A stretch of 64,000 bases of DNA, taken from a virus. Where the stretch lies: positions 5,874 to 69,873 of the IMG/VR virus record IMGVR_UViG_3300021399_000007. One strand, written 5' to 3'. The position numbers were made by a program, and so were the translations under genes. Position 1 is the stretch's first letter; every line of letters begins with the position of its first letter. A model generated the notes under the pieces. That model worked only from the letters and a program-made list of their open reading frames with translations. It made no database searches and was not told the origin of the DNA. Shown here one piece after another: positions 22,849 through 50,898 of this stretch.

Positions 22849-23131
22849 AAAGGAGAATGATATGAAATATATTCAAACTAAATTTTGCAAAGGAACTTTT
22901 ATTCTTGAAAAACATATTAATTTAAATAATTTTTTAAATGAAGATGAGCAAAAAAGATTTTATGATTTAAAAAATACTGATGAAAATGAAATGTCTGATG
23001 AAGATTTTGAATGGTATGAAGATGTTTTAAATAGAATTAAAGAAGAATCTGATTTTGTTGAATCAGAAGTAGTTTCTTATGAAGTTGATGACTGGGAAGA
23101 ATATGATGATGAAAATTATTTAATGGAGTAA
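22829..23131 (+). CDS. acidic hypothetical protein
   Basis: D/E-rich ORF. Confidence 0.4.
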   Translation: MKKNIIRKENDMKYIQTKFCKGTFILEKHINLNNFLNEDEQKRFYDLKNTDENEMSDEDFEWYEDVLNRIKEESDFVESEVVSYEVDDWEEYDDENYLME

Positions 23132-29288: not shown

Positions 29289-29360
29289 TTAATTTATATA
29301 AGCAAATTTTAAATAATATAGTAACCCTAAAAATATTTTATCTAATTAGGAGAGGATGTA

Positions 29361-31647
29361 TATGATTTATGTAATCAAAAGAGATGGCAGAAAAATGCCA
29401 TTCAACACAGAAAAAATAAAAAATGCAATTTTGAAAGCCTTTAAAGCAGTAGATGGTTAGATTTCAGATTATGCAGAAACTAAAGCAGAAAATATTGCTA
29501 ACTATATTGAAGGTTACTGCGAAGAAGAACTTGAACCATTATCTATTGAAGAAATTCAAGATTTAGTAGAAAATGGTTTGATGTCAACAAAACGAAAAGA
29601 CGTTGCTAAAGCCTACATCAAATATCGTGAAAATCGCACAAGAGAAAGAAATTGGAATAATAACATGATGCGGGCAGCGCAAGAAAAACTCACCGGATCC
29701 CGTATCGATAATCAAAATGCTAATGTCGATGAACATTCATTTGGCGGGCGTCGTGGAGAATTTGATTCTGTTATTTCTAAACAATATGCTTTAGATAACT
29801 GTATGTCAAAGATGTCACGAGAAAATCATTTAAATAATGAAATTTATATTCATGATTTAGATGCATATGCGGTTGGTATGCACAACTGTCTTAGTATGCC
29901 ATTGGATGATTTGCTTGCAAATGGTTTCAACACTCGTCAAACGGATGTAAGACCCGCAAATTCAATTAATACAGCTTTTCAATTAGTTGCTGTTTTATTT
30001 CAGCTTCAAAGTTTACAACAATTTGGCGGAGTTTCAGCAACCCATCTCGACTGGACAATGGTTCCATATGTAAGAAAATCATTTTTCAAACATCTTAAGG
30101 ATGGTTGTCAATACATATTAAAAATAAATTTTGATAAATATGAAACAGTTTTTAATGGAACTGATCCAATAGATTTTGAAGGATATAAAACATTTCATGA
30201 AGCATATGATTATGCAATGGACATGACAAAAAAAGAATTAGAGCAAGCAGTTGAAGGAATGTATCATAATCTTAATACTTTACAAAGTAGAAGCGGAAAT
30301 CAGCTTCCTTTTACATCAATAAATTACGGGACCTGCACACTTCCTGAAGGGCGTATGGTTATTAAAGCCATATTAGAAGGTAGTATTAAAGGTGTTGGTA
30401 AATTTCATAAAACTCCAATCTTCCCTTGTGGTATTTTTCAAGTAATGAGCGGAGTCAATAAAGAGCCAGGAACACCAAATTATGATTTATTTAGATTAGC
30501 TCTTGAATCAACAGCAAAAAGATTATATCCAAATTATGCTAATGTTGATTGGAGCGGAAATGCTGGTTATGACCGGAATGATCCAACTACATATTTTTCA
30601 ACAATGGGATGTCGTACAGCCAATGGTTTCGATATAAATGCAGACCCAGGCGTAAATCCGCAACGAAAAGATGGACGCGGCAATATTTGTCCTGTAACTA
30701 TTATTCTTCCTACTATTGCAATGGAAGCAAAAAATGCTTCTGATGATTGGATTAAACAAAGTGAATTATTACATGGAGAATGGGCAGGTATTCAATCTGA
30801 ACTTTATATAGATAAGTTTATGACACTTTTGGATAAAAAAATCCACGAAGCTAAAGATATGCTTCTTGAAAGATTTGAATATATTTGTTCGCAAGACCCA
30901 TCTTCTGCAAAATTTATGTGGGAAAATCATACTATGTTAGGTTATAAACCAGAAGAAGGAATTCGTTCTGCCCTTAAACATGGCACAATAGTAATTGGTC
31001 AATTAGGTCTTGCAGAATGTTTACAAATTCTTATTGGTAAGGATCATACAACAGAAGAAGGTATGGAATTAGCTAAACACATAGAACAATTATTTAAAAA
31101 TAGATGCGCCGAATTTAAGCAGCAATATAAACTTAATTTTGGTGTTTATTATACTCCTGCCGAGAATCTTTGTTATACAGCGATGAAAAAATTCCAAGAT
31201 AAATATGGAAAAATTCCAAATGTAAGTGATAAAGAATTTTTCACTAATAGTATGCATGTTCCAGTTTGGAAAGAAATTGATCCGTTTACAAAGATTGATA
31301 TTGAAAGTCAGCTAACTGGATATTCTTCTGCGGGGTGTATTACTTATGTAGAATTAGACAGCGGAATTTTACATAATATTGATGCATTAGAACAAATTGT
31401 AAATTATGCTATGGATAAAGATATTCCATATTTTGCATTAAATATTCCAAATGATTTATGTTTAAATTGCGGTTACACTGGAGAAATCAATGACGAATGT
31501 CCTATGTGTAAAAGCAAAAATATCCAAAGACTTCGTAGAGTAACTGGTTATTTAACAGGAGATTATAAGACCGCATTTAATCTTGGGAAACAGCAAGAGA
31601 CAGAAATGAGATTTAAACATTCAACATTATTAAGAGGATATAAATAA
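29361..31647 (+). CDS. nrdD: Anaerobic ribonucleoside-triphosphate reductase NrdD with N-terminal ATP-cone (1 in-frame TAG at ~29457)
   Basis: ATP-cone (MIYVIKRDGRKMPFNTEKI) upstream. Glycyl-radical motif RRVTGYL and a C-terminal Cys4 Zn site. TAG joins the ATP-cone to track ORF 29578..31647. Confidence 0.85.
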
Positions 31648-32212: not shown

Positions 32213-32698
32213 ATGGATAGATATGCAGGTTTAATAACTAATGATTTTGCAAATGGAGTTGGCACTTGCGTCTCATTTTGGACGCAAGGCTGCCCGCACC
32301 GCTGTCCTGGTTGTCAAAACCCATAGACATGGGATTTTAAAGGTGGAAAAGAAATTCCCACAGATATACGAGGACAAATTATTAAAGCTATTTGTGCAAA
32401 TGATATTATAAGAAATTTTTCAGTCTTGGGCGGAGAGCCTTTATGTGAAGAAAATTTAGATGAAGTTGAAAAAATTATTACAGCAGTAAGAACTGCTTAT
32501 CCGCACATAAAAATTTTTGTATGGACTGGTTATACTTTAGAAGAGTTGTTAGAAAAATAGGATGAAAAAATTAATAGTATTTTATCTCAAATTGATATTT
32601 TAATAGATGGTCGTTTTATTCAAGAGGAAAGAGATATTACTCTTGAATTAAGAGGAAGTAAAAATCAACGAGTCTTATATCGAGGAATTGATTTTTAA
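32213..32698 (+). CDS. nrdG: Anaerobic ribonucleotide reductase activating protein NrdG (radical SAM), 2 in-frame TAG
   Basis: CPHRCPGC radical-SAM cluster motif and GGEP motif. TAGs at ~32318 and ~32558. No ORF appears in the track because of the TAG interruptions. Confidence 0.7.
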
Positions 32699-34298: not shown

Positions 34299-34861
34299 TT
34301 ACTCAGTTTTAACTGGTAAATTTGTTTTTATATCTCTTCCACCATTTGCATATCTAGCAAAATCGACCACTGCTTTAAATTGTTTTGGATCAAAACTATC
34401 AACAATTTTTGCAGCAGCTTCCGCATTAGCGGGTAAATCATTAATCATTTGATTAATGATTGCACCAACACTGGTATTATTTACAAAACTTGTTTCCTTA
34501 ATGTTATTAAGTTGTTCAAAAAGTTCATTATATTCATCTTCATTGATAACTTTAAAGAACTCTTCATAAAAACCGTTACTCTTTAAAGTATCATATAATT
34601 TAAATTCATCTTCTCTTTGTTTTTCAGTGAAAGAAATGTTTGTATACATATAAACTAAATTTAATTCAAAATATAAATTTAATTTAAACTCATTATACAT
34701 TCCATTCTACAAAGATTTTTGTAATGTAATCATTAATAAATCATATTTATCTTGCGCTGGCAAATACTGAAGAACTTCTACTTTTTGTCCACAAAAATCA
34801 AAAGTTTTTACTTCTGTATTTACCTTTAATTTCATATTAGCATAAGATACTTTCATATCAA
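34299..34861 (-). CDS. hypothetical late protein (1 in-frame TAG)
   Basis: A minus-strand sigma-70-like promoter TTGACAAAATAAAAATTTTATGTTATACTATAAT plus RBS AAAAGGAG at ~34865-34935. The frame continues through TAG into track ORF 34299..34700. Confidence 0.4.
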
Positions 34862-34934
34862 TATCTCCTTTTAACTCTTGTTTATACTAATTATAGTATA
34901 ACATAAAATTTTTATTTTGTCAAATTTTTTATTA

Positions 34935-35702
34935 TTACTAAATAGATTTTATTGTTTCTCCAATTGTTTCATTAGCGATATTTTGTAATGTTTGTTTTAA
35001 ACTTACATTTATTGAACGCTATGCTTCTTTATTTTCTTTTTTCTTTTTAATTAAATATTCTTGAATAGCCTAGAAATTGTTTAATTTATTATTAATAATT
35101 TCTTGTGCCATATTAAATAATTGTTCAATACTTAATGTAGTAGCTTGATTTGATTTTACTGCCATCTACATATTATTAATAGTAGTATCACCTTCTAAAG
35201 TACCTGATAAGTTTGTTACTTTCATTACATAACTCATAAATTGTTCCATATTATCTTCTGGCACATTGGTATGAATAAAATGTTCATGTAATAATAAAGT
35301 CGCATAAGCTTCATTTATGCTACCGAAAGAAGAAACCAAAACGCCATTCCATTTTTGTCCACTATATGGATAAAGCCATAAAATATATGCTCCGCCATTA
35401 GATCTTTTATATTTATTAAATCTCTAATATGCTGTATTATATGTAGATTTTAACGAGGAATAATTAAAATTTTTAGTGTCCTATTGTATAGATTGTTCAA
35501 TTTTTGTAGCATGCTCTCGTAACATTTTTGCATTATTTCTATATCTAACAATTACATTACCATATCTATCTACATCAACTTTTAAAAAATCTGACATATT
35601 ATTAATTACATAAGTTTCTGGAACTCCTTTAGATCCAACCCATACATATGTTGTAGCAACTATTTGTCCCAATGCAGCATTTAAATATTCTTGAAATTTC
35701 AT
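34935..35702 (-). CDS. hypothetical late protein with several in-frame TAG
   Basis: Track ORF 35481..35702 continues in the same frame through about 5 TAG codons to TAA at ~34935. Confidence 0.4.
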
Positions 35703-35753
35703 TGCTAACTAATAAGTTTCTAAAATCCCTTTTTTTATTTCCTAAGAAAAATT

Positions 35754-36065
35754 CTATTTTCGAATTCTTAATCTCTCTTTTAAATAGATATCATATTCTG
35801 TAGTGTCTTTATAGGCTGCACCATTAGCTTTACAATTTGCTTTAAAACTATGCCAAGCTTTTATAGTTCGTTTTAATGCTGTCTCAAAATTAGAAATTTG
35901 CTTTATCATTATTTGATATTTTTCTATAAACTTTGATGCAGTTTGTATAATAATTTTATAGCTCTTTTGAACTTCCTGCGCTTCAACAGAGGTTGATGCA
36001 TTTAAAATAATTTTAGTATTAACATCTAATTCATTTTTATCAAATTGAATATCTACTTGTGACAT
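35754..36065 (-). CDS. hypothetical protein
   Basis: ORF preceded by a terminator hairpin AGGGAGGGTTAATTATAATCCTCCCT at ~36085-36115. Confidence 0.4.
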   Translation of the reverse strand: MSQVDIQFDKNELDVNTKIILNASTSVEAQEVQKSYKIIIQTASKFIEKYQIMIKQISNFETALKRTIKAWHSFKANCKANGAAYKDTTEYDIYLKERLRIRK

Positions 36066-36140
36066 ATTTATTTATTCCTTTATAATAAAAAATAGGGAGG
36101 ATTATAATTAACCCTCCCTATTCTATTTTTATTTAATTAA

Positions 36141-37145
36141 TTATCCCTGTACTACATCATCTGTTTCAGTTCCTTCTCCAGTATGAGTTCCATTGACGGA
36201 ATCATCAATAGATTCATCAATATTGAAACCAGTTGGATGCGGGAATAATGGCTTAACTTCATTCTTAGCCTCGGTTGCATCATCAACTACCTGAATAGCG
36301 CAAAGAACTTTATTAGTCTTATTAAAATATGTATATCCAGGGAATGCATCCATAGTAAAGGTGAAGGTACTAGGATCACCAGTAGCTGCCATTGAGAAAG
36401 TAAAGTTAGACTGAATTTTAACATTCGGGAATGTTAAATTAGCAGGTAAATCTTTACCATCGGACTGACGTCTAAACAATGTATCTGCTTCTACATAGTA
36501 ATAACCACCGAAAGTACCTGCATCAATCTGAAGCTCAGATACAGTACTAGATGCCTTAATTACATAATAATCAACCATCACTGGCCCGCTACTTGCAATA
36601 GCGGTCGCTTCTGCAACACCAGTAATCTGTAATTTCTTACCGCCAGTAGCCACAGACCAGCCTTTTAAGATTTCACCAGTAAGATCACCATACTCATCTA
36701 ACTTAATAATATAAATAGGAGCTGTAGGACAAATTGTTTCACTTTGCTCTAAAGCATCCGTTAAATCAATTTCTAATGTATTATTAGTAGCTGTAATGGT
36801 AGCAGTTGCTGCAGCGATTGCATTAGTAGTCTGATGGAAATGAACAGATTCACTAGATAATCCTTTAATAACACCAGCACCAGAAAGCATAGCGAAACTA
36901 ACAGGAGAAAGTAAGGCGTCTTCAACAGTAAATGTAAGAGTTTTCTAACCTTCCCAAGCAATTAAACGAGTATTACCACGACCACCTGTTGCATATACCG
37001 TGGTAGCCGCACCTTCCATCGAAGATGTTTTTGCAGTATCAAGATAGAATACAGGCTGACCTTTTTCAAAAGTCTTATCACCAATTTTTTGCTGATTCTT
37101 TGCCTTAAATACTACATTAGCAATTTCACGCACACCAAATTTCAT
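36141..37145 (-). CDS. Virion structural protein (possible tail tube/major tail protein), 1 in-frame TAG
   Basis: RBS AAGGAGG. Track ORFs 36945..37145 and 36141..36890 share a frame and are joined through TAG at ~36943. Confidence 0.45.
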
Positions 37146-37190
37146 TTGGATTTCCTCCTTATATTTTTATACAAAATCTTATTATTTTTA

Positions 37191-38557
37191 TTATTTTGAA
37201 TCATCTTCATAGATGTCTTTTAACCAGTCTTCAGGATCCTACATACCAGTTGCCCCAGCAACTTTAAATCGTTCCCAAGTGTCATAATGCAATTTTAATT
37301 CAAACCGATTAAATTCATCCATCAATTGATAAACAGTATAATTCATTAAATCATTTATATTTTTTTGCTATCCAACAGCAAGAATAGATATATATCGACT
37401 TAAAATAGAGATTTTTGTTTTTGGCGCCAGCTTCGCCCTTTTTTCTTGACCTCTTTTAAGTTTATTTGCAATTTTTTGTGATAAACTTCCACTTGGATTA
37501 TACTATTTATTCTTTTCATTCTTTAGGCAAAATATATCAATTAAAATCTATTTAAAATTATCAAAATTTTTTTCATCAATTTTAGACACATCATTAGTCT
37601 ATGGATTTCGTAATTGTATTGCCTAAAGTTCCAACCTAATTTCATAAGTTGGAAACAACAAAGCGAGAATAGATAAAACATTTAATCTAGCCTATTGAGA
37701 TTCTAAATTTTTTTCTCGTATCATTGTCATTATTATATTAAAATTTGACAAGTTCGATAAATCAATTTTGTCCTAAGTGAAAAAGACATCTTTATTAAAA
37801 TTTAATAATTCGCATCCAGGCCAAAACCGTGACTATGTAATATAAGCAATTTCTTTTAATCGCGGCTGATGAATTGTAATTCTAGCTTCTGGAAATGGAA
37901 TATCATTTCCCGATAATAAAAGTAATTCATCAATCATTTTTTATTAATCCATCCATCATAATTAGGCATTTTATCATGCTAACTTGGTAATACATCATCC
38001 GTACCATGAACAGCAGAATAAGTTAACGTATAACCAGAAAGAGTTTCATCAAGTACGAGCTAATTACAACCTGTAAATTGGAAAGTTCCAAGCCCAGATA
38101 ACCGCGCATTATTAAGAATCCCATCAATATATCCACAAATTTTTAATGGCCTAACTCTAAAATTACCAAGATCCCAACAATCAGTGTGACATAATACATC
38201 AATATAAACATTGCAATCTCTAAATTGTGGATTTGTTATAGTTGGTTTAAAATTATCAAAAGAAAAAATTAAATAACTTTTAACTTCCTAATGCTAAGAC
38301 ATCATAATTTTTGGTTCAAATTTTATATATCCTAGCTATCTTAATTTAGCCAAACTCATATCTTTAATCGCATTTTGATAAATAACACTGTTTGTATCTA
38401 AACAATCTTTTGTATTAATAACTAGTAATTTTTTTAATTCATTACTATAAGGTTGACTTTCTATAAACAATTTTCGTAAAATTGTTTCTAAATCTTTTTC
38501 ACATGATAAAAAAGATGAAGTAAAATCAACTGGTCTTAAAATTAAATCTCTTTTCAT
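37191..38557 (-). other. TAG-dense late coding region (at least 2 genes); frames only partly resolved by eye
   Basis: No ORF of 60 aa or more in any frame. A minus-strand frame downstream of 38336..38557 reads protein-like sequence (LGYIKFEPKIMMSQHQEV...HSHGFG...) with TAG about every 20-40 codons and real TAA TAA TGA stops at ~37725. A separate ~109 aa frame with 2 TAG ends at TAA 37191. Confidence 0.35.
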
Positions 38558-38582
38558 ATGTTTTATCTACTCCTTTTATCTC

Positions 38583-39566
38583 TTAAAGGGCAGTAATTGT
38601 TACATCTAATGTAATATCTTCTTGGCCCTCAACTCTATATATTAAAGTAAATACTCCCAATTCACCAATAGAAACATTCAATGGAATAATTTTTAAAGAG
38701 CTATTTAGTGAATCTTCTTTATCTTTCCATCTTATATACCAATGACCATTTTCAGCATTATGAATTTCATAATATGCCTTGCTGTATTGCTGAACTGCAG
38801 TTGGTCCATCAATATAAGCGGCGGTCTCATCGATAGGATTTTCCTGTCCAGACTCATCGTGTTCAGCAGCGACTGCATCCGCAATAGAATTTTCAAAAAA
38901 TTCATCTAAGAATACTTGAATAATACCATCTCCATAATAGGGATCTACACCAACTACTTGCCAAGTTTTTTCTGTATTATATCTTGGATCTAAAACTTTT
39001 ATAGTTTTAAATCTTTCAAAATAATTATTTGTAGTTTCATCTGCAGCAATATACATTACTAATGAATAATTCAATGTATTCCATTCAATACCCGCTTTTT
39101 GAGTCCATTCAATAGAAGTCTCAACAGGTCCTCGAATATAAACCCAATATAAATTATCCCCAACTTTAACCTATTGATCACATCTTCTAATCTCAGATCT
39201 AAAATAAGCATCTTCTTCAAGATACTCTAAATACACAAGCCAATGTGTATCAGTTTCTTTCCATGTAAAAACATCTCCAGGTTTAATATCAATATCAATC
39301 TCCCCCTAAGACGTTTTTCCCATTCTTGGAGTATTTAAACAAATGTCTTTATATGGGATGGAAAGAATTTTATTATCATAAGCTGGTTTATTTTTATCTG
39401 GATTAATTAAACACCTAAATTCTTTTCCATCTGATAATATCGCTGTGGCAGCTTGATAAGAATATAATAAAGCTTTTTTTAGACTTTTTAATTTATCATT
39501 AATAAATCTTTGCTCTTGATTGCCACCTTGATATTTTAACCTTTTATTTAATAATTCTAAGGACAT
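38583..39566 (-). CDS. Virion structural protein (2 in-frame TAG)
   Basis: Track ORFs 39306..39566 and 38583..39074 are in one frame, joined through TAGs. Confidence 0.45.
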
Positions 39567-39593
39567 TTTATTAATCTCCTTTAAAGAATTTTA

Positions 39594-39932
39594 TTATATT
39601 CTATCTCCATTTGATAATATACTTTTTTGTAACTCATTCATTAATCCTAAACATTCAAAAATCGTTCTACGATAACAAAGAAAATCATCATCATCTATTA
39701 ATGAATAAAGTCCTTCTAATTTATTTAATAAGGGAAAGAAGATTTCTGAATAGCCGCAATTCATTAATCTTTGCATTCCCGCTAATTCTTCTAATATTGT
39801 TTGTAATGGTTTTTTCCAATCAGCGCCCTATTCTCTACTAGGTAAAAGTTTATAAATTTGATTAATAAGATTTTGTAATCTATCATGAATTGTTAAATTA
39901 TCCATAACAATATTATATTTTAATATCATAAT
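39594..39932 (-). CDS. small late protein (1 in-frame TAG)
   Basis: ATG at ~39932 (MILKYNIVMDNL...). The frame continues through TAG into track ORF 39594..39776. Confidence 0.4.
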
Positions 39933-39934
39933 AA

Positions 39935-40528
39935 TTATCCCCCTGCCTTTTCATTGATAATTCTTTTATCAATTAAATCATCAACCGTATAATTAACAGG
40001 AGTTCTAAGCAATCCAAGAGTAGATTTCATAATACCATTCTTATTAGGAGCCCTTCTTTTATATAAACGCTGAAGATGAAATCCTTCTCTTTCGTAATCT
40101 TTCTTTAATTGAAGAAGCTTTTGCATATGATTAGCTTGAGAAGTAAATTTGAAATCAGACCCGCTATATTTCATTCGTGTATTTTCTACACTAGCAAGTT
40201 GTTGACTTAACCATTCTACAATCATATAAACAGCAAGAATATTTATCTCTTCATGTGTTAATGAATTATTAAAATATCCTTCATTATAAATAATTGCAGG
40301 CACTTCCTCATTATCACTTTCTGCCCCTTGATAAGTTGATTCTTCTGTAACTTCAAGCAATTCATAATCCCATAAATTAATACGAGGAAATTCAAATTTT
40401 TCAATAGCAGAAAGTAAAAGCTGTTCTAACATTTTGAATGTATCTAATTCTGTTAATTCTAAATACATATCATCTGTAATTTTTGAAAGAAAGGAGTCAT
40501 ATACAAGTGAAAAAGCAGTTGTATTCAT
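39935..40528 (-). CDS. hypothetical structural protein
   Basis: 197 aa ORF with an RBS AGGAGGTAT. Confidence 0.45.
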   Translation of the reverse strand: MNTTAFSLVYDSFLSKITDDMYLELTELDTFKMLEQLLLSAIEKFEFPRINLWDYELLEVTEESTYQGAESDNEEVPAIIYNEGYFNNSLTHEEINILAVYMIVEWLSQQLASVENTRMKYSGSDFKFTSQANHMQKLLQLKKDYEREGFHLQRLYKRRAPNKNGIMKSTLGLLRTPVNYTVDDLIDKRIINEKAGG

Positions 40529-40549
40529 TTATATACCTCCTATTAAAAA

Positions 40550-41137
40550 TTATTCTTTAGCAACTGGCTTATACCTACGTCCAGATGGCGCGGCGGCTGT
40601 ATTATCAGATTTTATCGGACTAGTCCTTCTCTTAATAGTAGTTTGAACATTCTCATTACTATCATTTTCTGTTTCACTATCATACTTTGTATTTTGAATT
40701 TCAATAGCTCTAGTAACATCAAATCCTAATTTATCTTTAATAGCTTGACGCTTATTCATATCATTAAGCGGCATTTTAACTGATAAATCTTTAATCATAT
40801 CTTTAATTACATCTGGAGCAAAATCTAAACAATCTAAAAATTGATCTAATGTGCCAACTGTTAATAATTTTTTCACATCATCCTCTGAATAATGATATTC
40901 AGGTTCAGAATTTTGATTAAATAATGCAGTAACCACATTTTCATCAACAATTTCAAGATATTCTTTTAAAATTACATCTCCGCCAGGGATGAAAGATAAT
41001 TTTTCTAATTCATCAAATGAAATATCCTTACTTTCATGAGGATAAAAATTTCTATGAACTCCCAACTCAGGAACATCATAGCCAACAACACCATTAAATT
41101 TATTAACGACTTTTACCATTTCATTTTTGTCAATCAT
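40550..41137 (-). CDS. hypothetical structural protein
   Basis: 195 aa ORF with an RBS AAAGGAG. Confidence 0.45.
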   Translation of the reverse strand: MIDKNEMVKVVNKFNGVVGYDVPELGVHRNFYPHESKDISFDELEKLSFIPGGDVILKEYLEIVDENVVTALFNQNSEPEYHYSEDDVKKLLTVGTLDQFLDCLDFAPDVIKDMIKDLSVKMPLNDMNKRQAIKDKLGFDVTRAIEIQNTKYDSETENDSNENVQTTIKRRTSPIKSDNTAAAPSGRRYKPVAKE

Positions 41138-41159
41138 ATTAAAACTCCTTTTATCTCTT

Positions 41160-41200
41160 TATAAAAAAAATAGGGGAGAAGAATTAAAATAATTATTCTC
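41160..41200 (-). terminator. Intrinsic terminator immediately downstream of the major capsid gene
   Basis: Minus-strand hairpin GGGGAGAATAATTATTTTAATTCTTCTCCCC followed by a T-run. Confidence 0.45.
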
Positions 41201-41217
41201 CCCAATTAAACAATATA

Positions 41218-42282
41218 TTATTTTGTTCCAATATATTTCTTAAGTGTGGTGTTTTGATAAATGCAGATTCCAGGATTAACCATATAAGTAGCTACACCAA
41301 GTTTCTGATAAGTCTGAATCTCAGTAGACCAATCACGATTATCAAAAGATTTCACTTGAGCAGTGCCTTCAAATGCAACTTTTACGGGCTTTTCAGCGCC
41401 AGTAGGAATAATATAAGCAAGAGAAGGATCAATGACCTTATCTGCATATAACGCAGTCTTACCAATATTATCTTCAAAAGATTGAGGAAGAATAATTACA
41501 CGATGGCCCTTATAAATTGCAAAGTATCCATTATTCCAAATTTCCTCTTTCATCCCATCCGACCAAGTATTAGCACTTGCAGGAAGCATTGTAGCAGCAA
41601 ATTCAAAAGTGCAATAAATTGTGCTCTTTCCACCATAAGAATCAGCGATCTGAAGTAATTTATCCATTTCAGCTTCACTGAATGTTGTCTGAACAGACTT
41701 CTGAAGATTAGGAACATTATTAATTAAAGCTTCAAGAGCCTTAGCAATTTCCTTATAAACTGCTTCATCCATTCCTTCAAGTACAAGACTATAATAATCA
41801 TTCATAGTCATGCGGCCATCAAGCAGCTCTTCCCATTCAATACGAGCAGCGCCGCCATAAGCAGCAGTTGGTACTTCGAGTGAATATCCGTCTAACTTGA
41901 AGACTTCATATCTACCAGCTAAACCAACTCTAGTAACGAACTGTTTTGCACGTTTCTTAGAAGCCTCACTAATTCTTACCTTATAAACAGGCTTTACTCC
42001 CTGAGCAAAGGTACGGACATCAGCAAACTGACCGTATGCTTGAAGTACCTTCTGAGGAAGAACCTCGGTAAGACCGACTTCCATTAATGTATAAATAAGA
42101 TTTTTATTTTCTCTAAAATCTTGAGGAGTAGAACCAAGTTCATTTAACTCCTTAATAAATGTTTTATTCAGAGCTTCCGCTGAAAGCTTCTCTCCGCCGA
42201 AAGAATAAGCGACAGAAGGATTTAATGAAGCCTTAGCATTGGCTCTAGCTAATTCAATAAGCTGATCTCTTGTTAATGCCAT
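41218..42282 (-). CDS. Major capsid protein (probable HK97-fold), no in-frame TAG
   Basis: Position downstream of the protease/scaffold gene. Strong RBS AGGAGG before MALTRDQ. About 354 aa. Followed by a terminator. Confidence 0.55.
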   Translation of the reverse strand: MALTRDQLIELARANAKASLNPSVAYSFGGEKLSAEALNKTFIKELNELGSTPQDFRENKNLIYTLMEVGLTEVLPQKVLQAYGQFADVRTFAQGVKPVYKVRISEASKKRAKQFVTRVGLAGRYEVFKLDGYSLEVPTAAYGGAARIEWEELLDGRMTMNDYYSLVLEGMDEAVYKEIAKALEALINNVPNLQKSVQTTFSEAEMDKLLQIADSYGGKSTIYCTFEFAATMLPASANTWSDGMKEEIWNNGYFAIYKGHRVIILPQSFEDNIGKTALYADKVIDPSLAYIIPTGAEKPVKVAFEGTAQVKSFDNRDWSTEIQTYQKLGVATYMVNPGICIYQNTTLKKYIGTK

Positions 42283-42299
42283 TGTCTTTTTCCTCCTTA

Positions 42300-42887
42300 T
42301 CACTGAACTCTCTGAATCTTAACGCCCTGTTGACCATCAGGCATTGTATAAATTTTTACAACCTTCCAAGCCATTCCAGTCACCCCAGAAAGACTAGAAG
42401 CTGCACTACCACCAGACTTAATTACCTCTAAGAATCCTGTGGTCCCAGGTGTTAAATAATTACCCTCAGCAATTGCAACGCCAGTAGTTTCTGCAGTATC
42501 AGAAGTATTAGCTTCAAAAGTATTAGTTGTAAAAATATCACCAATATTTGTTTTAATTAAACGCGGATACATTTTACCATCAGTAAAATCATCCACTTTA
42601 TATACAAAATCTTTATGACTTTGTTTCCTTTCATCATAAAGTTTCTCTTCATTATAAACAAGCATAAATTCGCCATCACCAGTAAAATTTACTTCACCAG
42701 CCGCATAATCATATTTAGCAAATTGACCCTGTTCAAGTTGGGTAATTGCATTGCTTGGTTGACCACTTGCAGCCGTATTTCCTTTTGCAGGTAACTGAGC
42801 GTAAATCTGACCAGTGACAATACCAGAAAGGTGATTAGGCTCAACTTGTCCATAACCTTTTCTCTTAATTGTTGCCATTTTCAGCAT
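42300..42887 (-). CDS. hypothetical head protein (decoration/head-associated?)
   Basis: 195 aa ORF between the protease/scaffold gene and the capsid gene. Confidence 0.4.
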   Translation of the reverse strand: MLKMATIKRKGYGQVEPNHLSGIVTGQIYAQLPAKGNTAASGQPSNAITQLEQGQFAKYDYAAGEVNFTGDGEFMLVYNEEKLYDERKQSHKDFVYKVDDFTDGKMYPRLIKTNIGDIFTTNTFEANTSDTAETTGVAIAEGNYLTPGTTGFLEVIKSGGSAASSLSGVTGMAWKVVKIYTMPDGQQGVKIQRVQ

Positions 42888-42906
42888 CCTCCTAATAATT
42901 AAAAAA

Positions 42907-44238
42907 TTAATTAAGTCTTTCTTGTTCTTTAACAGCTTTCACCCAATCTGGCAGGCTGTTGTTCTCATCACCTAAATTATAGGTTATAATATCTTCTTCG
43001 TTTTTCTTTTCATCAGTCTTTTTTTCTAAAGAAAAACTAATTTTTTTATCAAAGCAAATTACAGAAAGTTTTGCTTTAATTTCATCTAAAGTATACTTCT
43101 CTTTATTACTAATAACATCTGCTTTATCTTCATCGGAAAGCATATAAAATTCAGCAATAAGAGCATCCTTCTTCTGATTATCAATTTCTTTCTTGAAATT
43201 TACAAGTTCTTGATATTGACTCTGAAGCGTACTATAACTTTCTTTTAAAGTATTAAGCTCTTCTTCGAGTAACTCATACTTTTTAGCACTATTCTTATCA
43301 TCATCATCCTTGTCATCATCAGGATCATCATCAGGATCATTTTCACCCTCATCATCCACGGGCTTATCATCCTTTTCATTATCCTTTTTAACGTAATCAG
43401 TAGGAGCAGAAGTATCCTCTATGTTATTATTAACCTCTGGAGTTGTTTCAGCATTCACTTCTTCCGCCTGAGTAAACTCAGTAACAGGTTCAATATTTTC
43501 ATCTTCAACAACCACAGTGTCTTTAAGATTCTCCATCTGTTGTCCTCCTCCGTTCAAGGCATTCTTTAAATCTTGCATCATACTATAAAGTGTGTGCTTA
43601 AAATTATCATCTAATGTAAATCTTGCACTTACATTTGGAGCCGTTACAGAAGCGCCTTCGAAGCAAGGCTCAACATCGTCTCCTAATATGCAAATTTTTT
43701 GAATAATTGCATCATTTATAATAAAGAAATCCATTCCATTGTCATAACTAGTTTCCCAATGTCCCTTAACAGATTCCTTTTGAAGTTCCATTGATTGCGG
43801 ACGCCCCTCTTCCACAGGTAAGCTGGATTCTGGGAATTGATCGGTCCAAAGGTATCCAGTAGTCATAAGATATTTATGAACAATAGTGTTACCCATGCCA
43901 TCATTGTCTTCAAAATTTTGGAACCAAACTTTTGCGTCTGGTGCTACAAATCCATAAGGAACAGTTTGACATTCGAATTTAATTCCTTCATCATCAATAA
44001 TAACTTTTTCTCCATGATCTGTAAAATCTTCTTTACTTTCTCTATAATAACCAACAATAGGAGCGCCGCGAAGAGTTTTACCAATTTCAGCTGCAACTTC
44101 TTCTGTAATGAAAGTATGGTTTCTATTAGCTCCTACATAAAGAACCTTAATCTCACATTTTGACATTAAGGGATTAATATCAAGAGGTTGAAGATTTAAA
44201 AATTCAGGAGAGTCTATAGTCGCAACTGATTGATGCAT
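42907..44238 (-). CDS. Putative prohead protease/scaffold fusion protein
   Basis: 443 aa with a globular N-terminal domain and a C-terminal highly acidic stretch (DDDPDDDKDDDDK) plus coiled coil (ELLEEELNTLKESYSTLQSQYQELVNF). Lies between portal and capsid. No TAG. Confidence 0.45.
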   Translation of the reverse strand: MHQSVATIDSPEFLNLQPLDINPLMSKCEIKVLYVGANRNHTFITEEVAAEIGKTLRGAPIVGYYRESKEDFTDHGEKVIIDDEGIKFECQTVPYGFVAPDAKVWFQNFEDNDGMGNTIVHKYLMTTGYLWTDQFPESSLPVEEGRPQSMELQKESVKGHWETSYDNGMDFFIINDAIIQKICILGDDVEPCFEGASVTAPNVSARFTLDDNFKHTLYSMMQDLKNALNGGGQQMENLKDTVVVEDENIEPVTEFTQAEEVNAETTPEVNNNIEDTSAPTDYVKKDNEKDDKPVDDEGENDPDDDPDDDKDDDDKNSAKKYELLEEELNTLKESYSTLQSQYQELVNFKKEIDNQKKDALIAEFYMLSDEDKADVISNKEKYTLDEIKAKLSVICFDKKISFSLEKKTDEKKNEEDIITYNLGDENNSLPDWVKAVKEQERLN

Positions 44239-44415
44239 AATAAAATTCTCCTTTCATTCCCTCATATTTATATTAAAAATTTAGGCATTTTCTTTAACGG
44301 CTTTTGTCCAAAAAATTTTTTAGCTCATTGATTCTTTATTTTGTAAAGTTTTTGTTGATTTTTCATCATCAGCTTTTTCCGGCCTGCCCGCGCCATCTCC
44401 ACTTTCTGAACCACC

Positions 44416-45888
44416 CTACTTGCGATTAAGAACTTCCGCATTCATAGTGCTAGACATTAATGGAGGAATAAATACATTAACCAAATCAAGAATATCATTT
44501 TCAAAATAAGCAGTAGCCAATACCGCACTTTGTGCTTGACCCAATGCTATTTGCGGCAACATTTTAGAATAACCTAATTGAGTATGTTCCTTATATTGTT
44601 TAGCTAAATCTTTATAATTATAGATTGTAGTAGGAAGAATTTGTGCTCTATAAGTAACCTTTTTTGGACTTCGATTATAAGGTATTAATAGAGTATTTAA
44701 AAATGTTTCAAACTGTTGAATCAAATTCCACATTGAAGCTTCATCATTTAAGATAGATTTTTCAAGAGCAATGTTACCATCTGTGTTAAATTGCATTTGT
44801 GAAACACCTGCTTCATTATAAACAGTTCGTTCCACTTTTTCCAAATCATCTGTAGTAGTTGATGTCTTATTATCAGCCATGTCTGCGACTTCAACATCCG
44901 CAAAAGTAGTTAAAACATCAATTCCAATAGCCTTAGATAGCATTTGAACCGCATTGTTATGAAGTTGTTGCGCTTCATCTACATCAAATACTAAATCACC
45001 ATTTTTATCAATAGGCATTTTCTGAATGATAATTTTTAACAATTGTTGTTGCATTTTGCGGCGGTCGAGGTCTTGTGCCGCATCCAAATCAATAATTGCA
45101 GGAATTACCGCAATAAAAGGAGGAAAATCCTCCCCATTTAAATTGAATTTAATAACAGAACCAATTTCAAGTAAATACCACCCAGATTCATCTCCAGGAA
45201 AATCAGGCTTTAATTTTCCTTGTCTATACAGTTTATATCCTTTTTCAAATTCTGGTGGAAATACTTTTAACATTCTTGCAAGTTGTTCTGCATTAGCAAA
45301 CATATCATTAAAATATTTCATATTAAATTCAACCGCAGGATGACCATTTACCATAAAACGCGATCTACAATATTTTGGTGGCAATTCTTGTACAATAACA
45401 GTTCCATTTTGTGCAATTAAATAACCATAATAACAGCCATTTTTCATTACTTTTAATGCAACTTCTCCAAAAAATTTCTTCGCTTCAAAATTATCCAAAT
45501 ATGCTAAAACTTTATTAAAGCCCTCAAGAAGTTTTTCAGGTTTTATTGCTTCAGTATAGTAGGGTGTAACAAGCCAATCATATCTATACATATATGCCAT
45601 ATAACGGCACAATCTTTGATAAATACCGCTAATTTTATAAAAATAATTAGAGATATCTCTCATTTTATCAAGGTCGTTATAATAAATTGCTCTTAAAACC
45701 TGTTCTTTATCTGCTAATTGTGGATTTACTTTACGAAGGTCACCTAATTTAAGAATCGCATCAGATATTGACTTTACTCCAACTTTAATTTTTGCAAAGT
45801 CAATAGGCACATAACCAGTAGCCTAATTAGGAATTTGGTAATCTTCAGTTCCAATCATGTTAAAGCCTTTTTTCTTTATCTAAGCCAT
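44416..45888 (-). CDS. Portal protein (by size and position), 2 in-frame TAG near the N-terminus
   Basis: Frame extends upstream of the track start through 2 TAG to ATG at ~45888 (MAQIKKKGFNMIGTEDYQIPNQATGYVPIDF...). Lies directly downstream of the large terminase. Confidence 0.5.
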
Positions 45889-45948
45889 TCGATTAATCAA
45901 CTTTAGATACCTCTCCTTCTTTAATATCCAGCCGCCTCTAATATATAA

Positions 45949-48074
45949 TCATAATTTATTCTTGCTTCATCCCAATAGGGAATGATTACTAAATTGATCC
46001 CATGATCTCGACAATATTCTCTTTTTTTCATATCGTTGTATTGTTGTTTTCTTAAACCATTATATCCACCAAATTTTTCTTTAGCTTCATAATGTTGAAT
46101 TCCTTGAAATTCAATGAGAAAATCAATATTATGCTAATCGTCGAAAACCGCAAAATCAAATCTTAGCGGGCGGCCTGTATTACTTACTAAATCTGGAAAA
46201 GAGTATTCTTCTGCGAACTCTAATCCAGACTCTTGTAGAATTTCTTCTATTTTAATTTCTCCTCTAGATGCTCGCATATTTTTTCTCCTTCACTATATTA
46301 TATAAAAATTTTATCTATAAAATTAATAAACTTTGACCTTAAGCTGGAGTAAAAAATAAAAAGTCAGAAATATTACGTTTTTTCTTCTTTTTATTTAATT
46401 CCTATTCATAACGAATATAATATAATCCATATATAAAAGCAGAAAATTTATCTTTCTTAATACTTCTATTGCTCTGTTTCAGAATAATATTAACTCCCTA
46501 ATTTTCTTCTACAAGATTTAACATTTGTTCTTTCAAAATCGAGGTTAATATAAAAGGTCGTAAATAATCATTTCTTTCATCAATATTCATATTTTGACCT
46601 TGTTTAGTTGACATTAATTTAGTTTTTGCCAAGCCTTCATCAATTAAAAATCTAATCTTCCCACTAAACATCTGAGTTTGTGCATAACTATATGCCTATG
46701 TATTTATAGGCGCATTAGCTTTAATTAAAAACAAAATATCCCGCTCTGTCTCAGGAGTAACAAATTTTTTATATTCTGGATATTCATCTGTATTATAAAC
46801 ACCAAAAGGAGGTAAATATTCACCATCATCTGTATCTTGCGCTTTAACTAAATAATCAATAAGCCCAACTCCTAGACCATTAGCATCAACTGCAATTCTA
46901 CGCGGCCTATATTTATAATACAAATGTTTTATATGAATACATTGAGTTTCAAAGTGTTCTGCATCATAAGTATAAATATTTACAAGAGTCTTATGAGCTG
47001 CCCCTTGAACTTGCGGCGTAACTTTAAAAACACAAATCTCTGTAGTACATCCCACACGTCCAACGTCTATACCAAATACATAATAAGCATTTTTTGAAGA
47101 CCGCCCGCTATATTCATACTATGGTTGTAATAATACTCTGTATTTATCAAATTTTTCAGAAGAAAAGAATGCATTTTCAACATCGCCAGACCAAATACTA
47201 CGATATTCTCTATTGAATGATTCATCATTAAAAGTCCCTTGTAATCTTAATTGCTATACAAAATCTTCATCCAATAGACCAGAAATCACAGGTGTTTCAT
47301 AAGTTCCGCCCATAATCATATATTCTTCTGGATCAATGATAGAATTAATTAAAATTTCAATTAATTTGTGATAAGCAAAACTATTTTTCCATCCCGCTGT
47401 GGTTATATAAATTTGTGATTTATTAACATTCTCCTCTTTGTGGCGGCTACCATCTGAAAGTCTTCTATCAACGTTTGTAGTAGGAATAATAACTTCATTT
47501 AGAATATCACCATCAATTAATACGCACTCTTCCATTAATCCACCAGTACGACGTTGACCTCTAGATGACTGCCTCGCCGCTAAGATATCAATAGTAGAGC
47601 CATTCTTAAATACATATTTAACGTTATCTTTTGATTTAGTAGATACACCGCGATCCCAGTTAATTTCATTATTTAAACCAGGTATGAGTTTACATATTTC
47701 CTAAATTTTAGCAATAGTAATAGAAGCTGCCTGCTCCTTTCCGCCTGTAGTTACAAATAAATGTGAATTAGGATATAAAATGCATCTAATCATTAATGCC
47801 ATCATTGATAAAAAAGACTTAGAATATGCGCGCGGGAATGTTGCGTACACATACCGGTGCCGCATCACAATTCTAAGAAAAATTCTTTGATAAAATAAAA
47901 AATTAAATGTGCTATCTTTTCCTTTTATAAAATCCACAAAAATATCAGGATATTCCCTAAAATAAGCAATTAAATCTCTTAATCCATCTATGTCTTTCAA
48001 TAGCCGCTATTCTGATAAACCTTGTTTTTTATACTATCTGTCGGAGGATAACTGAAGTAATTCTTTTAAATTCA
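45949..48074 (-). CDS. Terminase large subunit with multiple in-frame TAG (track fragments 47701..48000, 47254..47535, 46696..47055)
   Basis: Start MNLKELLQLSSDR(TAG)YKKQGLSE(TAG)RLLKDIDGLRD... at ~48074. One minus-strand frame carries the three fragments, separated only by TAG. Deviant Walker-A-like PRAYSKSF. TGA stop at ~45949. Confidence 0.55.
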
Positions 48075-49409
48075 TTCGTGTTTAAGCCTCCTATTTATGT
48101 ATTCTTCTTCAATTAAATCATCATTTAAGTCATCATCATGATCTTTCATGTGATTTAAGGATTTTTTATAATTAGTAAAATCATCATCATCTAATTCCAC
48201 ATTATCTAATCCTTTAGCTTTTGCATCTTTTTTATCTTTTTTCATTTCATTTGAAATGCGTTTATCTTGCAAATATTTTTCAATTTCTTGCGCTAATGAT
48301 TTATCTTCATAAATTAAGTTTTTATTATATGCTTTTAAATCTAAAATAATTTGATCAACAATATCTTGCGGCTAATTGCAATGATAACGTGGAATTTCTC
48401 CGCTATGAGCCTCAACAAAATCAACAATAGCAGAAGCAGAATCAATTGTATCAGCATCTTTATCTTTATTCTGCGCCTATGTAAATTTTGCGGACTTCAT
48501 CATAGCATCATAGACACGCGATAATTTCTGGTAAGAATCGATGTCGCCGCAATCAATAGCCTCATTCATTTTGAGGGATGTCTTGCAAATCATTTTTAAT
48601 GTATCAATACGTGCCGCCCCTTGAATATCAAATGAATTCATAAATTCATTATATAATTGTTCAAGAGCAACCCACTGACTGGGTTTATAAAGTCGGCCCC
48701 ATTTAACCGCAAGATACATTTTATCATCATCATCTAAATTCGCGCCAGGATCAACTATTTCGCTTTCCGCCATAAAATTTTGTTCTCTAAATGGATTTTT
48801 TGCTTGATTAAGCGCCTAGGCGTATGACTATGGTTGACCGTAAACCTGGAATATTTGGCCTAAATGTTCTCCTGTAATAGCATCCCCCCACCGCGGTAAT
48901 TCCTTATTTTGAGTTTCTGTGCTAACAAGAGTCTGATACTAGGCGGGGGATATTTTTCCTTCGCTCAATTTAACTTTTAACGAGGCCTAATACCGCGCCT
49001 TCTCTTCTGCTTCGGCCTTTTCTTTTTTAGCCTTTTCCGCGTCCATTTCTTCTTGAATTTTTTTGGTATCCGCATATCCATATTTGCTCCATTGTTTGAG
49101 CTTCATTTTAGCAAGATATTTACCAATAACAGACATTCCATTCATTTTATAAGGGTCTTTCGCAAACGCCTTATCTCTTAATACATTCCATTCAGTAGGA
49201 ATATAAGGAACATCCATTTTTTCAAGAATCCATTCAAAAGTACTAGGATCAAAATTATCTATATGCGCGGTTAAGCATGGTTTGCAAATTTCGCATTTAC
49301 TGCCATCTTTATATGTATAAAAATTTATTTGTGCAATTCTTTTGCCACACCGCTCGCATTGACATTTACCATTTGCGTCTTCTTGCTGTCCTTTTAATTT
49401 TTGCGCCAT
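48072..49409 (-). CDS. Zn-ribbon protein, possible small terminase subunit; about 7 in-frame TAG
   Basis: Track ORFs 48987..49409, 48477..48773 and 48072..48272 are in one minus frame, joined only by TAG. N-terminal CxxC...CxxC. Immediately upstream of the large terminase with an overlapping stop/start. Confidence 0.35.
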
Positions 49410-49444
49410 AAAAGTCTCCTTTCTTCATTTTTTATTTTTAAAAA

Positions 49445-50562
49445 AATTCTTTAATGAATTAAAGACTTTTGTCCTTTTTCTTATTTCTACAACATTTACA
49501 AATACTATACCAACCATCCTTTGAAGTTCTATTTCTTGTAAAAAAATAAGGATGAGCAAGTTTTACCTAATGACAGCGCGAACATTTTTTCCATTTTCCT
49601 TTTTCTTCTATTGTATAATGCCAAATTATCCAATCTTCTTTTGCTTTTTCAGAAATAATTTTTGGGATTTTTTTCCGCCACACTGAAGATAAATATTCAA
49701 TAGAATAAGTGATATTATATTTATTTTTTATCTTTTCCGCAATTTCTTTATTTTGAAGTCCATCTATTTTATAAATCATAATATCATATAAAATAGGATA
49801 ATCATCTTTCAATGCTTTTTCTATAAGATTATCTAGATCCTCCATTAAGTACCACCAATCATCGTCAAAATGGCCCCAAACGTCTTCTTTTAATTTAGAA
49901 TAATTACACAATAGACAACAAACATGCTATGGATTAAATAGTGATACTAAACAGTTACTTTCTGGGTCAAAATTTTCATTTATTTTTATTTTTTCATTTA
50001 AATTTATTTGATTAGCGCTTTTGGTTATCCGCATCATAGTAATGGGCGGTTTGTAGATACTTTTTAATACATATTGATCTTGTCTAGCTTCAATTAATTG
50101 TTTTGTAAGTAAGAATTTTTGTTTTCCCTTAGCCGCCTTTTGCCGCGCCTCTATTTTTTTAATTTCTTCTCTTAATTCTTTTAATCCTGGTATAGTTATT
50201 ATATCTTCTTCTGTGATTTGTATTTTTGGAACTAATAAAATGTTTTTATCGCCGCCAGTCATAAAGTTATAAATGCCATCCTCGCCATTCTATAACTTGG
50301 AAACTAGACCTTCATAGGAGATTTCTCTTTTGTTGATAGTTACCATCCTATTGTCTGTTAAGACTTTCCGCTCTTTTTTATTATCATAAGTTTCTGTTAA
50401 GTATTTTGTAAGCTATTCTAAATAATAAGGAGTAAGTTTTTCTGAGGGAATATTATTAACAATTTCATGTACTATTTTATTACGCTATTGAGGGTCAATA
50501 ATAGTATAGTCCAAGGTGGGATAAGGTCTTTTAGACTACATATTTTTTAACTCTTTTTCCAT
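49445..50562 (-). CDS. Late-operon leader protein with a sigma-70 region-4-like HTH (candidate late transcription regulator / sigma-like factor), about 6 in-frame TAG
   Basis: RBS GCAGAAAGGAG and ATG at ~50562. One frame joins track ORFs 49927..50262 and 49567..49911 through TAGs. DIMIYKIDGLQNKEIAEKIKNKYNITYSIEYLSSVWRKKIPKI resembles sigma region 4. C-terminal Cys cluster (CSRCH..CKCC). Confidence 0.4.
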
Positions 50563-50680: not shown

Positions 50681-50896
50681 ATGAATAATAAAGAAAGGTA
50701 TATGAATATGAAAGCAATAGCAAATTATAATATGGGCTTTGATAAGGGGACCTTTGTAAAAGGGAAAGCCTATAATTATAGGAGGGCTGATGAAGAAAAT
50801 TCACAAAGATTTTTTATAACAACAGAAGAGAATGCAGAACAAGAATTATGGGACACAGAATTTGATATATTATTTACTATAGAAGGAGAAGAGTAA
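50681..50896 (+). CDS. hypothetical protein
   Basis: ORF after a TTTTATAATATAATT promoter motif. Confidence 0.4.
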   Translation: MNNKERYMNMKAIANYNMGFDKGTFVKGKAYNYRRADEENSQRFFITTEENAEQELWDTEFDILFTIEGEE

Positions 50897-50898
50897 TT

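Follow-up and report, generated by a model that had tools for sequence, protein, structure and literature searches.

We analysed the in-frame TAG codons of a 64,000-nucleotide stretch of the IMG/VR virus record IMGVR_UViG_3300021399_000007 (positions 5,874 to 69,873 of the record; hereafter the window, numbered from its first letter), with a focus on its late gene block. TAG is frequent in most late genes and in the homing endonuclease genes, and absent from core replication genes and from the major capsid protein gene. In the clade to which this phage belongs, TAG very probably encodes glutamate (Glu), and relatives with a gene for a CUA-anticodon tRNA suggest that it is decoded by a tRNA of the phage itself. 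The resulting pattern could act as a translational gate, in which TAG-containing proteins would remain unfinished until the suppressor tRNA accumulates. We give a probability of roughly 0.6 to this account as a whole, i.e. to the recoding to glutamate, the classes of genes from which TAG is excluded, and the gate.

The window has a GC content of approximately 30% and would represent around half of a tailed phage of roughly 130–145 kb. Many relatives were found in IMG/VR, on contigs of 120–145 kb, while the nearest annotated phages were phAss-1 (capsid protein 52% identical) and Enterococcus phages of the EF1/VRE9 type (35%). The clade would be one of rumen or gut metagenomes, distantly related to phAss-1 and to the EF1-like phages. 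The GC skew shows three transcription blocks:

1-34130, plus strand: replication and nucleotide metabolism block (GC skew, Pfam and PHROG matches)
34299-50562, minus strand: late block, in transcription order the sigma-like gene g60, g59, the large terminase (TerL), an HNH fragment, the portal gene, g55, g54, g53 and virion proteins
50681-63512, plus strand: block of 26 small open reading frames (ORFs), presumed immediate-early

The first block holds the N-terminal part of GyrB, GyrA, NAD ligase, an AAA_24 protein, DnaB, a primase-like gene, a RecJ-like gene, the C-terminal part of a UvrD-like gene, DNA polymerase III (Pol III) alpha, guanylate kinase, NrdD, NrdG and dUTPase, with GIY-YIG and HNH homing endonucleases interspersed (PHROG matches). 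Genes were re-called with stops at TAA and TGA only. The long ORFs of the window appear only when TAG is read through, and TerL, the portal gene, NrdD, NrdG, the RecJ-like gene and the GIY-YIG genes reach full length only in this way; reading through TAA gave no better ORFs in the window. The N-termini of g12, g21 and g43 were doubtful and were trimmed, as their TAG codons lie upstream of the start of homology.

We counted 83 in-frame TAG codons among 18355 codons in the window. The late block carried 52 of them (10.2 per 1000 codons, 12.3% of the Glu-type codons), the homing endonucleases 13 (14.2 per 1000 codons), and the replication block 15 (1.55 per 1000 codons). The small-ORF block had 3 in 2681 codons (1.1 per 1000), confined to two doubtful ORFs. 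With either gene length or the number of Glu-type codons as the normaliser, the heterogeneity among genes was greater than in any of 20000 multinomial Monte Carlo draws; the odds ratio between the late and replication blocks was 6.8 (p = 2.5e-12). Among the late genes, only 1 of the 144 Glu-type codons of g46 and g51-g55 was TAG, versus 51 of 280 in the other genes (p = 3e-9). Off-frame TAG was alike in all gene classes (9–25 per 1000 codons), and therefore the bias is specific to the reading frame and does not reflect base composition. The gene-by-gene distribution is as described with near certainty, and the uniform density that the original prediction had set out as its alternative was not seen. 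The counts for the genes of the replication block that carry the comparison were as follows:

2991..5333, plus strand: GyrA/ParC-like gene, 0 TAG in 780 codons (Pfam DNA_topoisoIV, E = 1.8e-135); the 34 clade orthologues also have 0
5723..7660, plus strand: NAD-dependent DNA ligase, 645 amino acids, 0 TAG (Pfam DNA_ligase_aden)
8232..9149, plus strand: GIY-YIG homing endonuclease g11, 8 TAG in 305 codons (PHROG 314, 7168)
13446..14990, plus strand: DnaB-like helicase, 514 amino acids, 0 TAG (Pfam DnaB_C)
18458..20257, plus strand: RecJ-like DHH exonuclease g24, 3 TAG, a TAG-tolerant gene of the early block (Pfam DHH, DHHA1, RecJ_OB)
22096..22860, plus strand: HNH homing endonuclease g29, 3 TAG in 254 codons (PHROG 559, 374)
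24764..28720, plus strand: Pol III alpha, 0 TAG in 1318 codons (Pfam DNA_pol3_alpha, PHP)
29356..31647, plus strand: NrdD, 1 TAG in 763 codons, at codon 35 (Pfam NRDD, E = 6e-149)
32213..32698, plus strand: NrdG activase, 2 TAG in 161 codons (Pfam Fer4_12)

The late block contained the following:

34299..40528, minus strand: distal late genes g44-g51, TAG-rich (g45 9/376, g47 9/248, g48 5/207)
36141-37145, minus strand: g46, virion protein with 1 TAG and a high-expression codon bias, an exception among g44-g51
41218..42282, minus strand: g53, HK97-fold major capsid protein, 0 TAG (model and Foldseek)
42300..44238, minus strand: g54 and g55, between the portal and capsid genes, putative scaffold, protease or decoration proteins, 0 TAG each (PHROG 35301, 3313, function unassigned)
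44320..45888, minus strand: portal protein g56, 3 TAG (PHROG 2739, E = 2.7e-81)
45921..46277, minus strand: HNH endonuclease fragment g57, 1 TAG (PHROG 9084, 559)
46339..48075, minus strand: TerL, g58, 8 TAG in 578 codons (PHROG 2, 15503)
48072..49409, minus strand: g59, upstream of TerL, 6 TAG in 445 codons (PHROG 3314, function unassigned)
49459..50562, minus strand: sigma-factor-like g60, 6 TAG in 367 codons (PHROG 5767 'sigma factor', E = 1.3e-44)

These counts bear out most of what had been read from the sequence alone. The GyrA-like, ligase, DnaB, Pol III alpha and major capsid genes remained free of TAG after gene calling with TAA and TGA only, and the homing endonucleases, TerL, the sigma-like gene and the distal late or tail genes were TAG-rich as claimed. 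The primase-like g21 and the dUTPase g43, also listed as TAG-free, are so if they start at the onset of homology, but 3 and 1 TAG, respectively, lie upstream of it in their longest ORFs. The supposed protease and scaffold genes (g54 and g55) do have no TAG here and the supposed small terminase gene (g59) is indeed TAG-rich, although these role labels were guesses from position. Enrichment in nrdD was overstated, with a single TAG in the gene, and nrdG has its two. A second exception among g44-g51 is g51, without TAG in the window.

We then considered the same genes across the clade, using approximately 100 related contigs and loci. Relatives with a TerL identity of at least 84% all carried in-frame TAG (2–22 per 1000 late-gene codons), and those with 77% or less carried none; therefore, the recoded clade sits among standard-code relatives. 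In the clade, TAG was found in 0 of 10435 codons of GyrB, 0 of 25029 of GyrA (the 34 orthologues), 0 of 15611 of the ligase, 0 of 10243 of DnaB, 0 of 6830 of g14, 0 of 4190 of the helicase g28, and 1 of 26154 of Pol III alpha, so that GyrA, GyrB, ligase, DnaB and Pol III alpha combined had a single TAG in about 87,000 codons. The capsid protein had 5 in 6975 codons (0.72 per 1000), and g54 and g46 had 0.42 and 1.9 per 1000. Much higher densities were found in TerL (17 per 1000), g59 (18), g60 (19, with TAG present in all 30 clade orthologues), g47 (30), g49 (25), the HNH fragment g57 (21), and the 24 orthologues of the GIY-YIG gene g11 (33, or 29% of Glu-type codons), and the tape measure gene seen in one clade locus (L275) contained 69 TAG in 2866 codons. 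The RecJ-like g24 had 10.8 per 1000, g55 7.7 and NrdD 1.9. As an exception to this conserved pattern, g55, g51 and g52 lack TAG in the window yet bear it in most relatives; the late genes that are robustly TAG-poor across the clade are only the capsid protein, g54 and g46. As a terminator, too, TAG has been lost from the clade: downstream of the gene end, the first stop encountered was TAA in 600 cases (76%), TGA in 178 and TAG in 14 (n=792), versus 421 TAA, 90 TAG and 48 TGA in the standard-code relatives (n=559).

We examined which residue TAG stands for by aligning orthologues with TAG masked as X and reading the column residue from standard-code relatives. The residues opposite TAG were mainly glutamate. 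In columns with at least 90% agreement among the standard-code relatives, glutamate was found in 57 of 66, aspartate in 5 and glutamine (Gln) in 2; with a threshold of 80% and all three locus sets, glutamate was found at 85 of 104 conserved TAG columns. In a calibration with 103 conserved TAG columns the fractions were 0.83 glutamate, 0.10 aspartate and 0.03 glutamine, and the control codons gave 0.83 glutamate and 0.06 aspartate for GAG, 0.72 glutamate for GAA, 0.54 glutamine for CAA and 0.74 glutamine for CAG. The TAG profile is the same as that of GAG, which argues for glutamate and not glutamine. All 15 TAG sites of the window with at least 80% agreement among standard-code relatives corresponded to glutamate, including six in TerL (glutamate in all standard-code relatives, with 17/18 at one site), codon 38 of NrdG (invariant glutamate in 14 standard-code relatives), three in g48, and codon 34 of g50. 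Opposite TAG, other recoded genomes had GAA (42%), GAG (9%), CAA (6%) and CAG (1%), and other, more distant recoded lineages in the same samples gave glutamate at 22 of 30 columns.

The obvious alternative is genetic code 15, in which TAG is glutamine as in crAss-like phages, Lak and phAss-1, with the same late bias. It is the sole amber reassignment validated in phages (PMC9523058) and is assumed for this phage group (PMC10607447); moreover, phAss-1 gave glutamine at 5 of 10 conserved columns by our own test (glutamate at none), and acceptor positions 2-7 of the clade tRNA(CUA) presented below are those of the co-resident tRNA-Gln. We consider it very improbable for this clade, as the alignment with glutamine expected under code 15 was seen in only 3% of the 103 calibration columns, with 83% glutamate and a profile unlike those of CAA and CAG, and the codons that replace TAG in other recoded genomes are likewise mostly those of glutamate. 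In permissive genes, TAG/(TAG+GAG) was 0.5–0.83 and the share of GAG was below that of the standard-code relatives, as expected if TAG arises from GAG by one G-to-T change. TAG would then be a third glutamate codon of the clade, no longer ending genes, and would largely replace GAG in the permissive genes (terminase, portal, sigma-like gene, tail genes, tape measure and homing endonucleases), at 15–30% of their glutamate codons. That TAG means glutamate in this clade has strong support from these alignments and is very likely.

Regarding the decoding of TAG, the original prediction made the recoded genes dependent on a suppressor. A phage-encoded tRNA(CUA) does occur in the clade but not in the window, where ARAGORN and Rfam detected no tRNA or known RNA and a custom scan for a CUA anticodon hairpin plus T arm found none. 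The gene was detected at the default ARAGORN threshold in contig IMGVR_UViG_3300021431_000004 (L323:798-873; L with a number denotes a locus), inside an array of at least 17 tRNAs (L323:11-3810) that is only partly covered, with approximately 3.9 kb of its contig unread. The array lies between the small-ORF region and the tail-gene block, with extended -10 promoter-like sites before it and a strong terminator after it. The same tRNA(CUA) with minor variants was present in 14 metagenome contigs, always within a tRNA array and usually with tRNA-Met and tRNA-Thr after it. Other scans of viral contigs gave no tRNA(CUA) at the default threshold, and the exact pattern had no match in bacterial genomes. 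Relaxed-threshold calls of tRNA(CUA) in L016, L017 and L303 look like false positives and were discarded. In the phage of the window, TAG would likewise be decoded by a phage-encoded tRNA(CUA) in an array outside the window.

The clade tRNA(CUA) reads CGCCCAGUAGUCGAGUGGUUUAAGACAGCUGACUCUAAAUCAGCGGAUCGCGGGUUCGAAUCCUGCCUGGGUGA. Its first two pairs are C1-G72 and G2-U71, and its D arm has the three-pair GUC/GAC stem of the co-resident tRNA-Glu (GCC/GGC in the co-resident tRNA-Gln). In bacteria without glutaminyl-tRNA synthetase, tRNA-Gln is charged with glutamate, which is then amidated by GatCAB, an enzyme that recognises the D loop and a weak base pair at the first position. If a CUA tRNA were accepted by glutamyl-tRNA synthetase (GluRS) but ignored by GatCAB, it would insert glutamate, and this would explain why related phages differ between glutamine and glutamate. 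The pair A1-U72 is present in the co-resident tRNA-Gln and in one phAss-1 suppressor with a Glu-type D arm. It is possible, though rather doubtful, that the different meaning of UAG in the clade and in phAss-1 lies in the suppressor tRNA in this manner, with C1-G72 escaping GatCAB in hosts with a non-discriminating GluRS; which synthetase charges the tRNA(CUA) is itself an inferred step. If this is true, the meaning of amber could flip between glutamine and glutamate by one or two base changes in a tRNA.

We also found a hypervariable slot for tRNAs or tRNA-like elements after the ORF at 62777-63136, just past a conserved hairpin. In the window (63177-63272, plus strand) and at L301:7208-7285 it holds a 96-nt element with acceptor and T-arm-like stems (loop UGCAAGU), whose stem differences between the two are compensatory; it contains no CTA and was not called as a tRNA by any tool. 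The same slot has tRNA-Lys(UUU) in L304 and L308, other odd elements in L303 and L311, and at L309:10403-10486 a non-canonical tRNA with a CUA anticodon, called only at the relaxed ARAGORN threshold. The anti-Shine-Dalgarno-like ACTCTACTGACAATATTCGTTCCTCCTTTCTT comes after the slot in all these loci. A second tRNA-like gene, of 98 nt, was seen next to tRNA-Leu(CAA) at L024:4052-4149 and L049:5350-5447, on the minus strand of each locus. Its anticodon stem is 6 bp long, its loop has 8 nt (a four-base anticodon according to ARAGORN), and its variable region is long. The window lacks this gene, which in some relatives lies upstream of the sigma-like gene at a distance of about 2 kb.

The original prediction was that TAG acts as a switch of timing or expression level for late functions and endonucleases. 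The bias itself is real and fits a suppressor-gated model, and the small early ORFs and the core replication genes are essentially free of TAG, but timing on its own fails for the capsid protein, g54 and g46, which are late and avoid TAG, and therefore expression level is a second factor. In agreement with this, the share of TAG among glutamate codons (TAG/Glu) fell with the share of CAG plus AAG codons, with rho -0.54 for the late and -0.45 for the early-block genes (p ~0.03), and the strongest CAG/AAG bias together with almost no TAG was found in the capsid protein, g54, g46 and g14. Could expression level be sufficient, with TAG slow or leaky and avoided according to protein demand, whatever the timing? 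The four strongly biased genes and the negative correlations in both blocks agree with such an explanation, but Pol III alpha, GyrA, ligase, DnaB and primase lack a high-expression codon bias (CAG plus AAG share of 0.08–0.17, like TerL) and still have only 1 TAG in about 80,000 codons; TAG is likewise absent from the small early ORFs. We therefore consider expression level alone unlikely.

The pattern could also have arisen by neutral drift under relaxed constraint, with TAG gathering in fast-evolving or dispensable genes, being purged from conserved ones, and having no connection to timing. Rapid evolution is typical of homing endonucleases and tail genes, which are TAG-rich, and TAG is approximately as frequent as GAG in permissive genes, as neutral exchange would give. 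However, TAG/Glu was not correlated with protein identity (rho 0.17 in late genes, -0.13 overall). TerL, which is about 96% conserved (95.7% identical across the clade), has TAG at 22% of its glutamate codons, and the HNH fragment g57 (93% identical) is also TAG-rich, while the ligase, 67–68% conserved (67.5%), has none in 1191 glutamate codons and g13 (74%) is likewise free of TAG. Many TAG sites are, moreover, common to at least 20 genomes. With the most conserved gene TAG-rich and one of the least conserved TAG-free, we rejected relaxed constraint, which seems very unlikely. TAG density is untied to conservation and falls with codon bias, and therefore the pattern reflects timing and expression level.

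A last alternative, that the genome is a mosaic in which the TAG-free replisome and capsid modules came recently from standard-code phages, was also rejected and is extremely improbable. One clade contig does have a TerL 94% but a GyrA only 69% identical to the window, but the TAG-free modules are no closer to standard-code relatives than the TAG-rich genes (maximum identity 75.6% for the capsid protein, 72% for Pol III and 76% for TerL), their TAG-free status is kept in 20–34 divergent clade genomes per gene, and they have also lost TAG as a terminator.

The small-ORF block gives indirect support to the timing. We found 14 perfect TTGACA-17-TATAAT promoters at 54.9–63.6 kb versus 2 in the other 50 kb scanned, and this density from 54.9 kb onwards marks the region as immediate-early and read by the host polymerase; 54893-63585 (plus strand) looks like an immediate-early host-takeover region. 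That 50.6–64 kb is ORF-free non-coding DNA was ruled out by its small ORFs and strong promoters. In 54893-63585 the perfect promoters, together with many 11-of-12 matches, each precede a small ORF, the GC content rises to 0.36–0.42, and a 48-bp tandem repeat is present at 55562-55653. Tandem paralogous small genes at 62777-63136 and 63774-64000 (plus strand), with starts MTKREMFTKIRTAV and MTKKEMFSKIRTAV, have their own consensus promoter each.

We propose that TAG is excluded from genes that would be translated by unmodified host machinery at the start of infection (the small promoter-rich ORFs and the core replisome), and likewise from the virion genes that would be expressed most strongly (g46, g54 and the capsid protein gene). 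The sigma-like factor that heads the late block would be gated as well: g60 has TAG in 30/30 orthologues and is preceded by a host-type promoter (an 11-of-12 sigma-70-type match at 50623-50595, minus strand), so that the protein, and the transcripts that depend on it, may have to await the suppressor. In permissive genes the frequency of TAG does not exceed what exchange with GAG predicts. TAG therefore appears to be barred from genes in which decoding is absent or costly, and not to have been installed as a switch in the others. We regard a timing gate of this kind as somewhat favoured by the sequence data, with the timing inferred, and it could be either an adaptation or a by-product of TAG tolerance where decoding is available and cheap.

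Several points weigh against the account as a whole. The timing of the genes was deduced from sequence, and the insertion of glutamate from alignments. TAG is present in several early-block genes (the RecJ-like g24, g12, NrdD, NrdG, and dUTPase in relatives), and therefore the boundary between early and late is not sharp. Codon bias is an indirect proxy of expression, with modest p-values (0.03). The window has no tRNA of any kind, so the suppressor of this genome itself was not seen. Finally, acceptor positions 2-7 of the tRNA(CUA) are identical to those of the co-resident tRNA-Gln (apart from the A1-U72 pair of the latter) and its D loop also resembles that of the co-resident tRNA-Ser; therefore, its sequence alone does not fix the isotype as Glu.

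The bias of TAG towards late genes and endonucleases, and the idea of a switch, have been described before, in recoded phages of the gut. Borges et al. (bioRxiv 10.1101/2021.08.26.457843) described late-gene-biased recoding with standard-code replication genes in crAss-like, Lak, Agate, Jade and other groups and proposed a code-switch model, with an intron endonuclease within an early gene preferentially recoded and glutamine as the best-aligned residue for TAG 'in most cases'; the late-gene recoding model was restated in the phAss-1 paper (PMC10607447). The window and its clade share with those phages the recoded stops in structural and late genes, the standard-code replication genes, close standard-code relatives, a candidate phage-encoded suppressor tRNA (in clade relatives), low GC and the loss of the recoded codon as terminator. 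They differ in that TAG aligns with glutamate and not with glutamine, and they extend that description in that the strongest TAG avoidance among late genes (capsid protein, g54 and g46) is documented and tied to codon bias. The focus of Borges et al. was on lysis genes, which lie outside this window. Among the suppressor isotypes predicted by Kienbeck et al. (PMC10879173), i.e. Gln, Trp, Ile and Tyr, Glu is not included, and Al-Shayeb et al. (PMC7162821) left one case unresolved. We found no report of TAG as glutamate in phages in a literature search that was not exhaustive.

Another close system is phAss-1, of the proposed Phassvirus group (PMC10607447; OQ749652), which belongs to the same broad group and has a genome of ~136 kb, a long tape measure, nrdD/nrdG and many tRNAs, with 41 ORFs that contain recoded TAG, among them TerL, portal and tail genes. 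In contrast to the clade, its TAG aligns with glutamine, both as published (PMC10607447) and by the column test above. It has three tRNA(CUA) genes, two of them adjoining nrdD, where the window has none, and its tRNA(CUA) differs in sequence from that of the clade. One of the phAss-1 genes (L081:12442-12532) is about 90 nt long, with a Glu-type GUC/GAC D arm, A1-U72 and a variable-region insertion of about 20 nt, unlike its Gln-like neighbour at 12536-12610.

Outside phages, UAG is read as glutamate in nuclear codes (NCBI tables 30 and 31; peritrich ciliates and Blastocrithidia). The meaning of UAG is shared with the clade, but those codes are eukaryotic and nuclear and reassign UAA too, whereas the clade keeps TAA as its main terminator (76% of genes) and is formed by phages of presumably standard-code bacteria.

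The most interesting content of this analysis is, in our opinion, the glutamate reassignment, which comparative sequence evidence strongly supports, and the candidate tRNA. If true, they would add a further amber reassignment to the bacterial and phage world and provide a candidate for a natural Glu-inserting amber suppressor, possibly usable as such. Annotation with table 15 would place glutamine at up to about 30% of the glutamate codons in terminase, tail and other proteins. The clade also adds a well-sampled case to the known late-gene recoding bias, in which TAG avoidance follows presumed timing and expression level and not protein conservation.

As for the identity of the late genes, g60 had no Pfam match, Pfam and NCBIfam gave none for any late gene searched, and a PDB sequence search with g53 and g46 was also negative. 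An AlphaFold2 model of g53 based on a 36-sequence alignment reached a predicted local distance difference test (pLDDT) score of 77 (41 for a single-sequence model), and its top Foldseek matches were the capsids of phages FCWL1, HK97, T5 and T1 and encapsulins, with probability 1.00; judging from this model, g53 is the HK97-fold major capsid protein. The precomputed Pfam family PF27364 is assigned to all g53 homologues (P0001-P0240). At the end of g45 (34935-34940, minus strand) the final sense codon is a TAG directly before TAA (ATT TAG TAA), so this gene ends at almost the same place under either code.

Finally, two genes of the replication block appear interrupted. The GyrB frame (3-3001, plus strand) stops at 1181 within the Toprim motif (...MSDADV) and is followed by a GIY-YIG endonuclease gene (1360-2073) and four small ORFs (2273-3001). 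Of these, g04 is conserved in 27 relatives and lacks TAG in them. A gyrB that is split or carries an intron is suggested by this arrangement; no intron was found by Rfam. Of the UvrD-like helicase only the C-terminal part is present (g28, 21175-22023), with small ORFs before it and the HNH endonuclease at 22096-22860 after it (region 20223-22860, plus strand), and this gene may have been broken by a mobile element.

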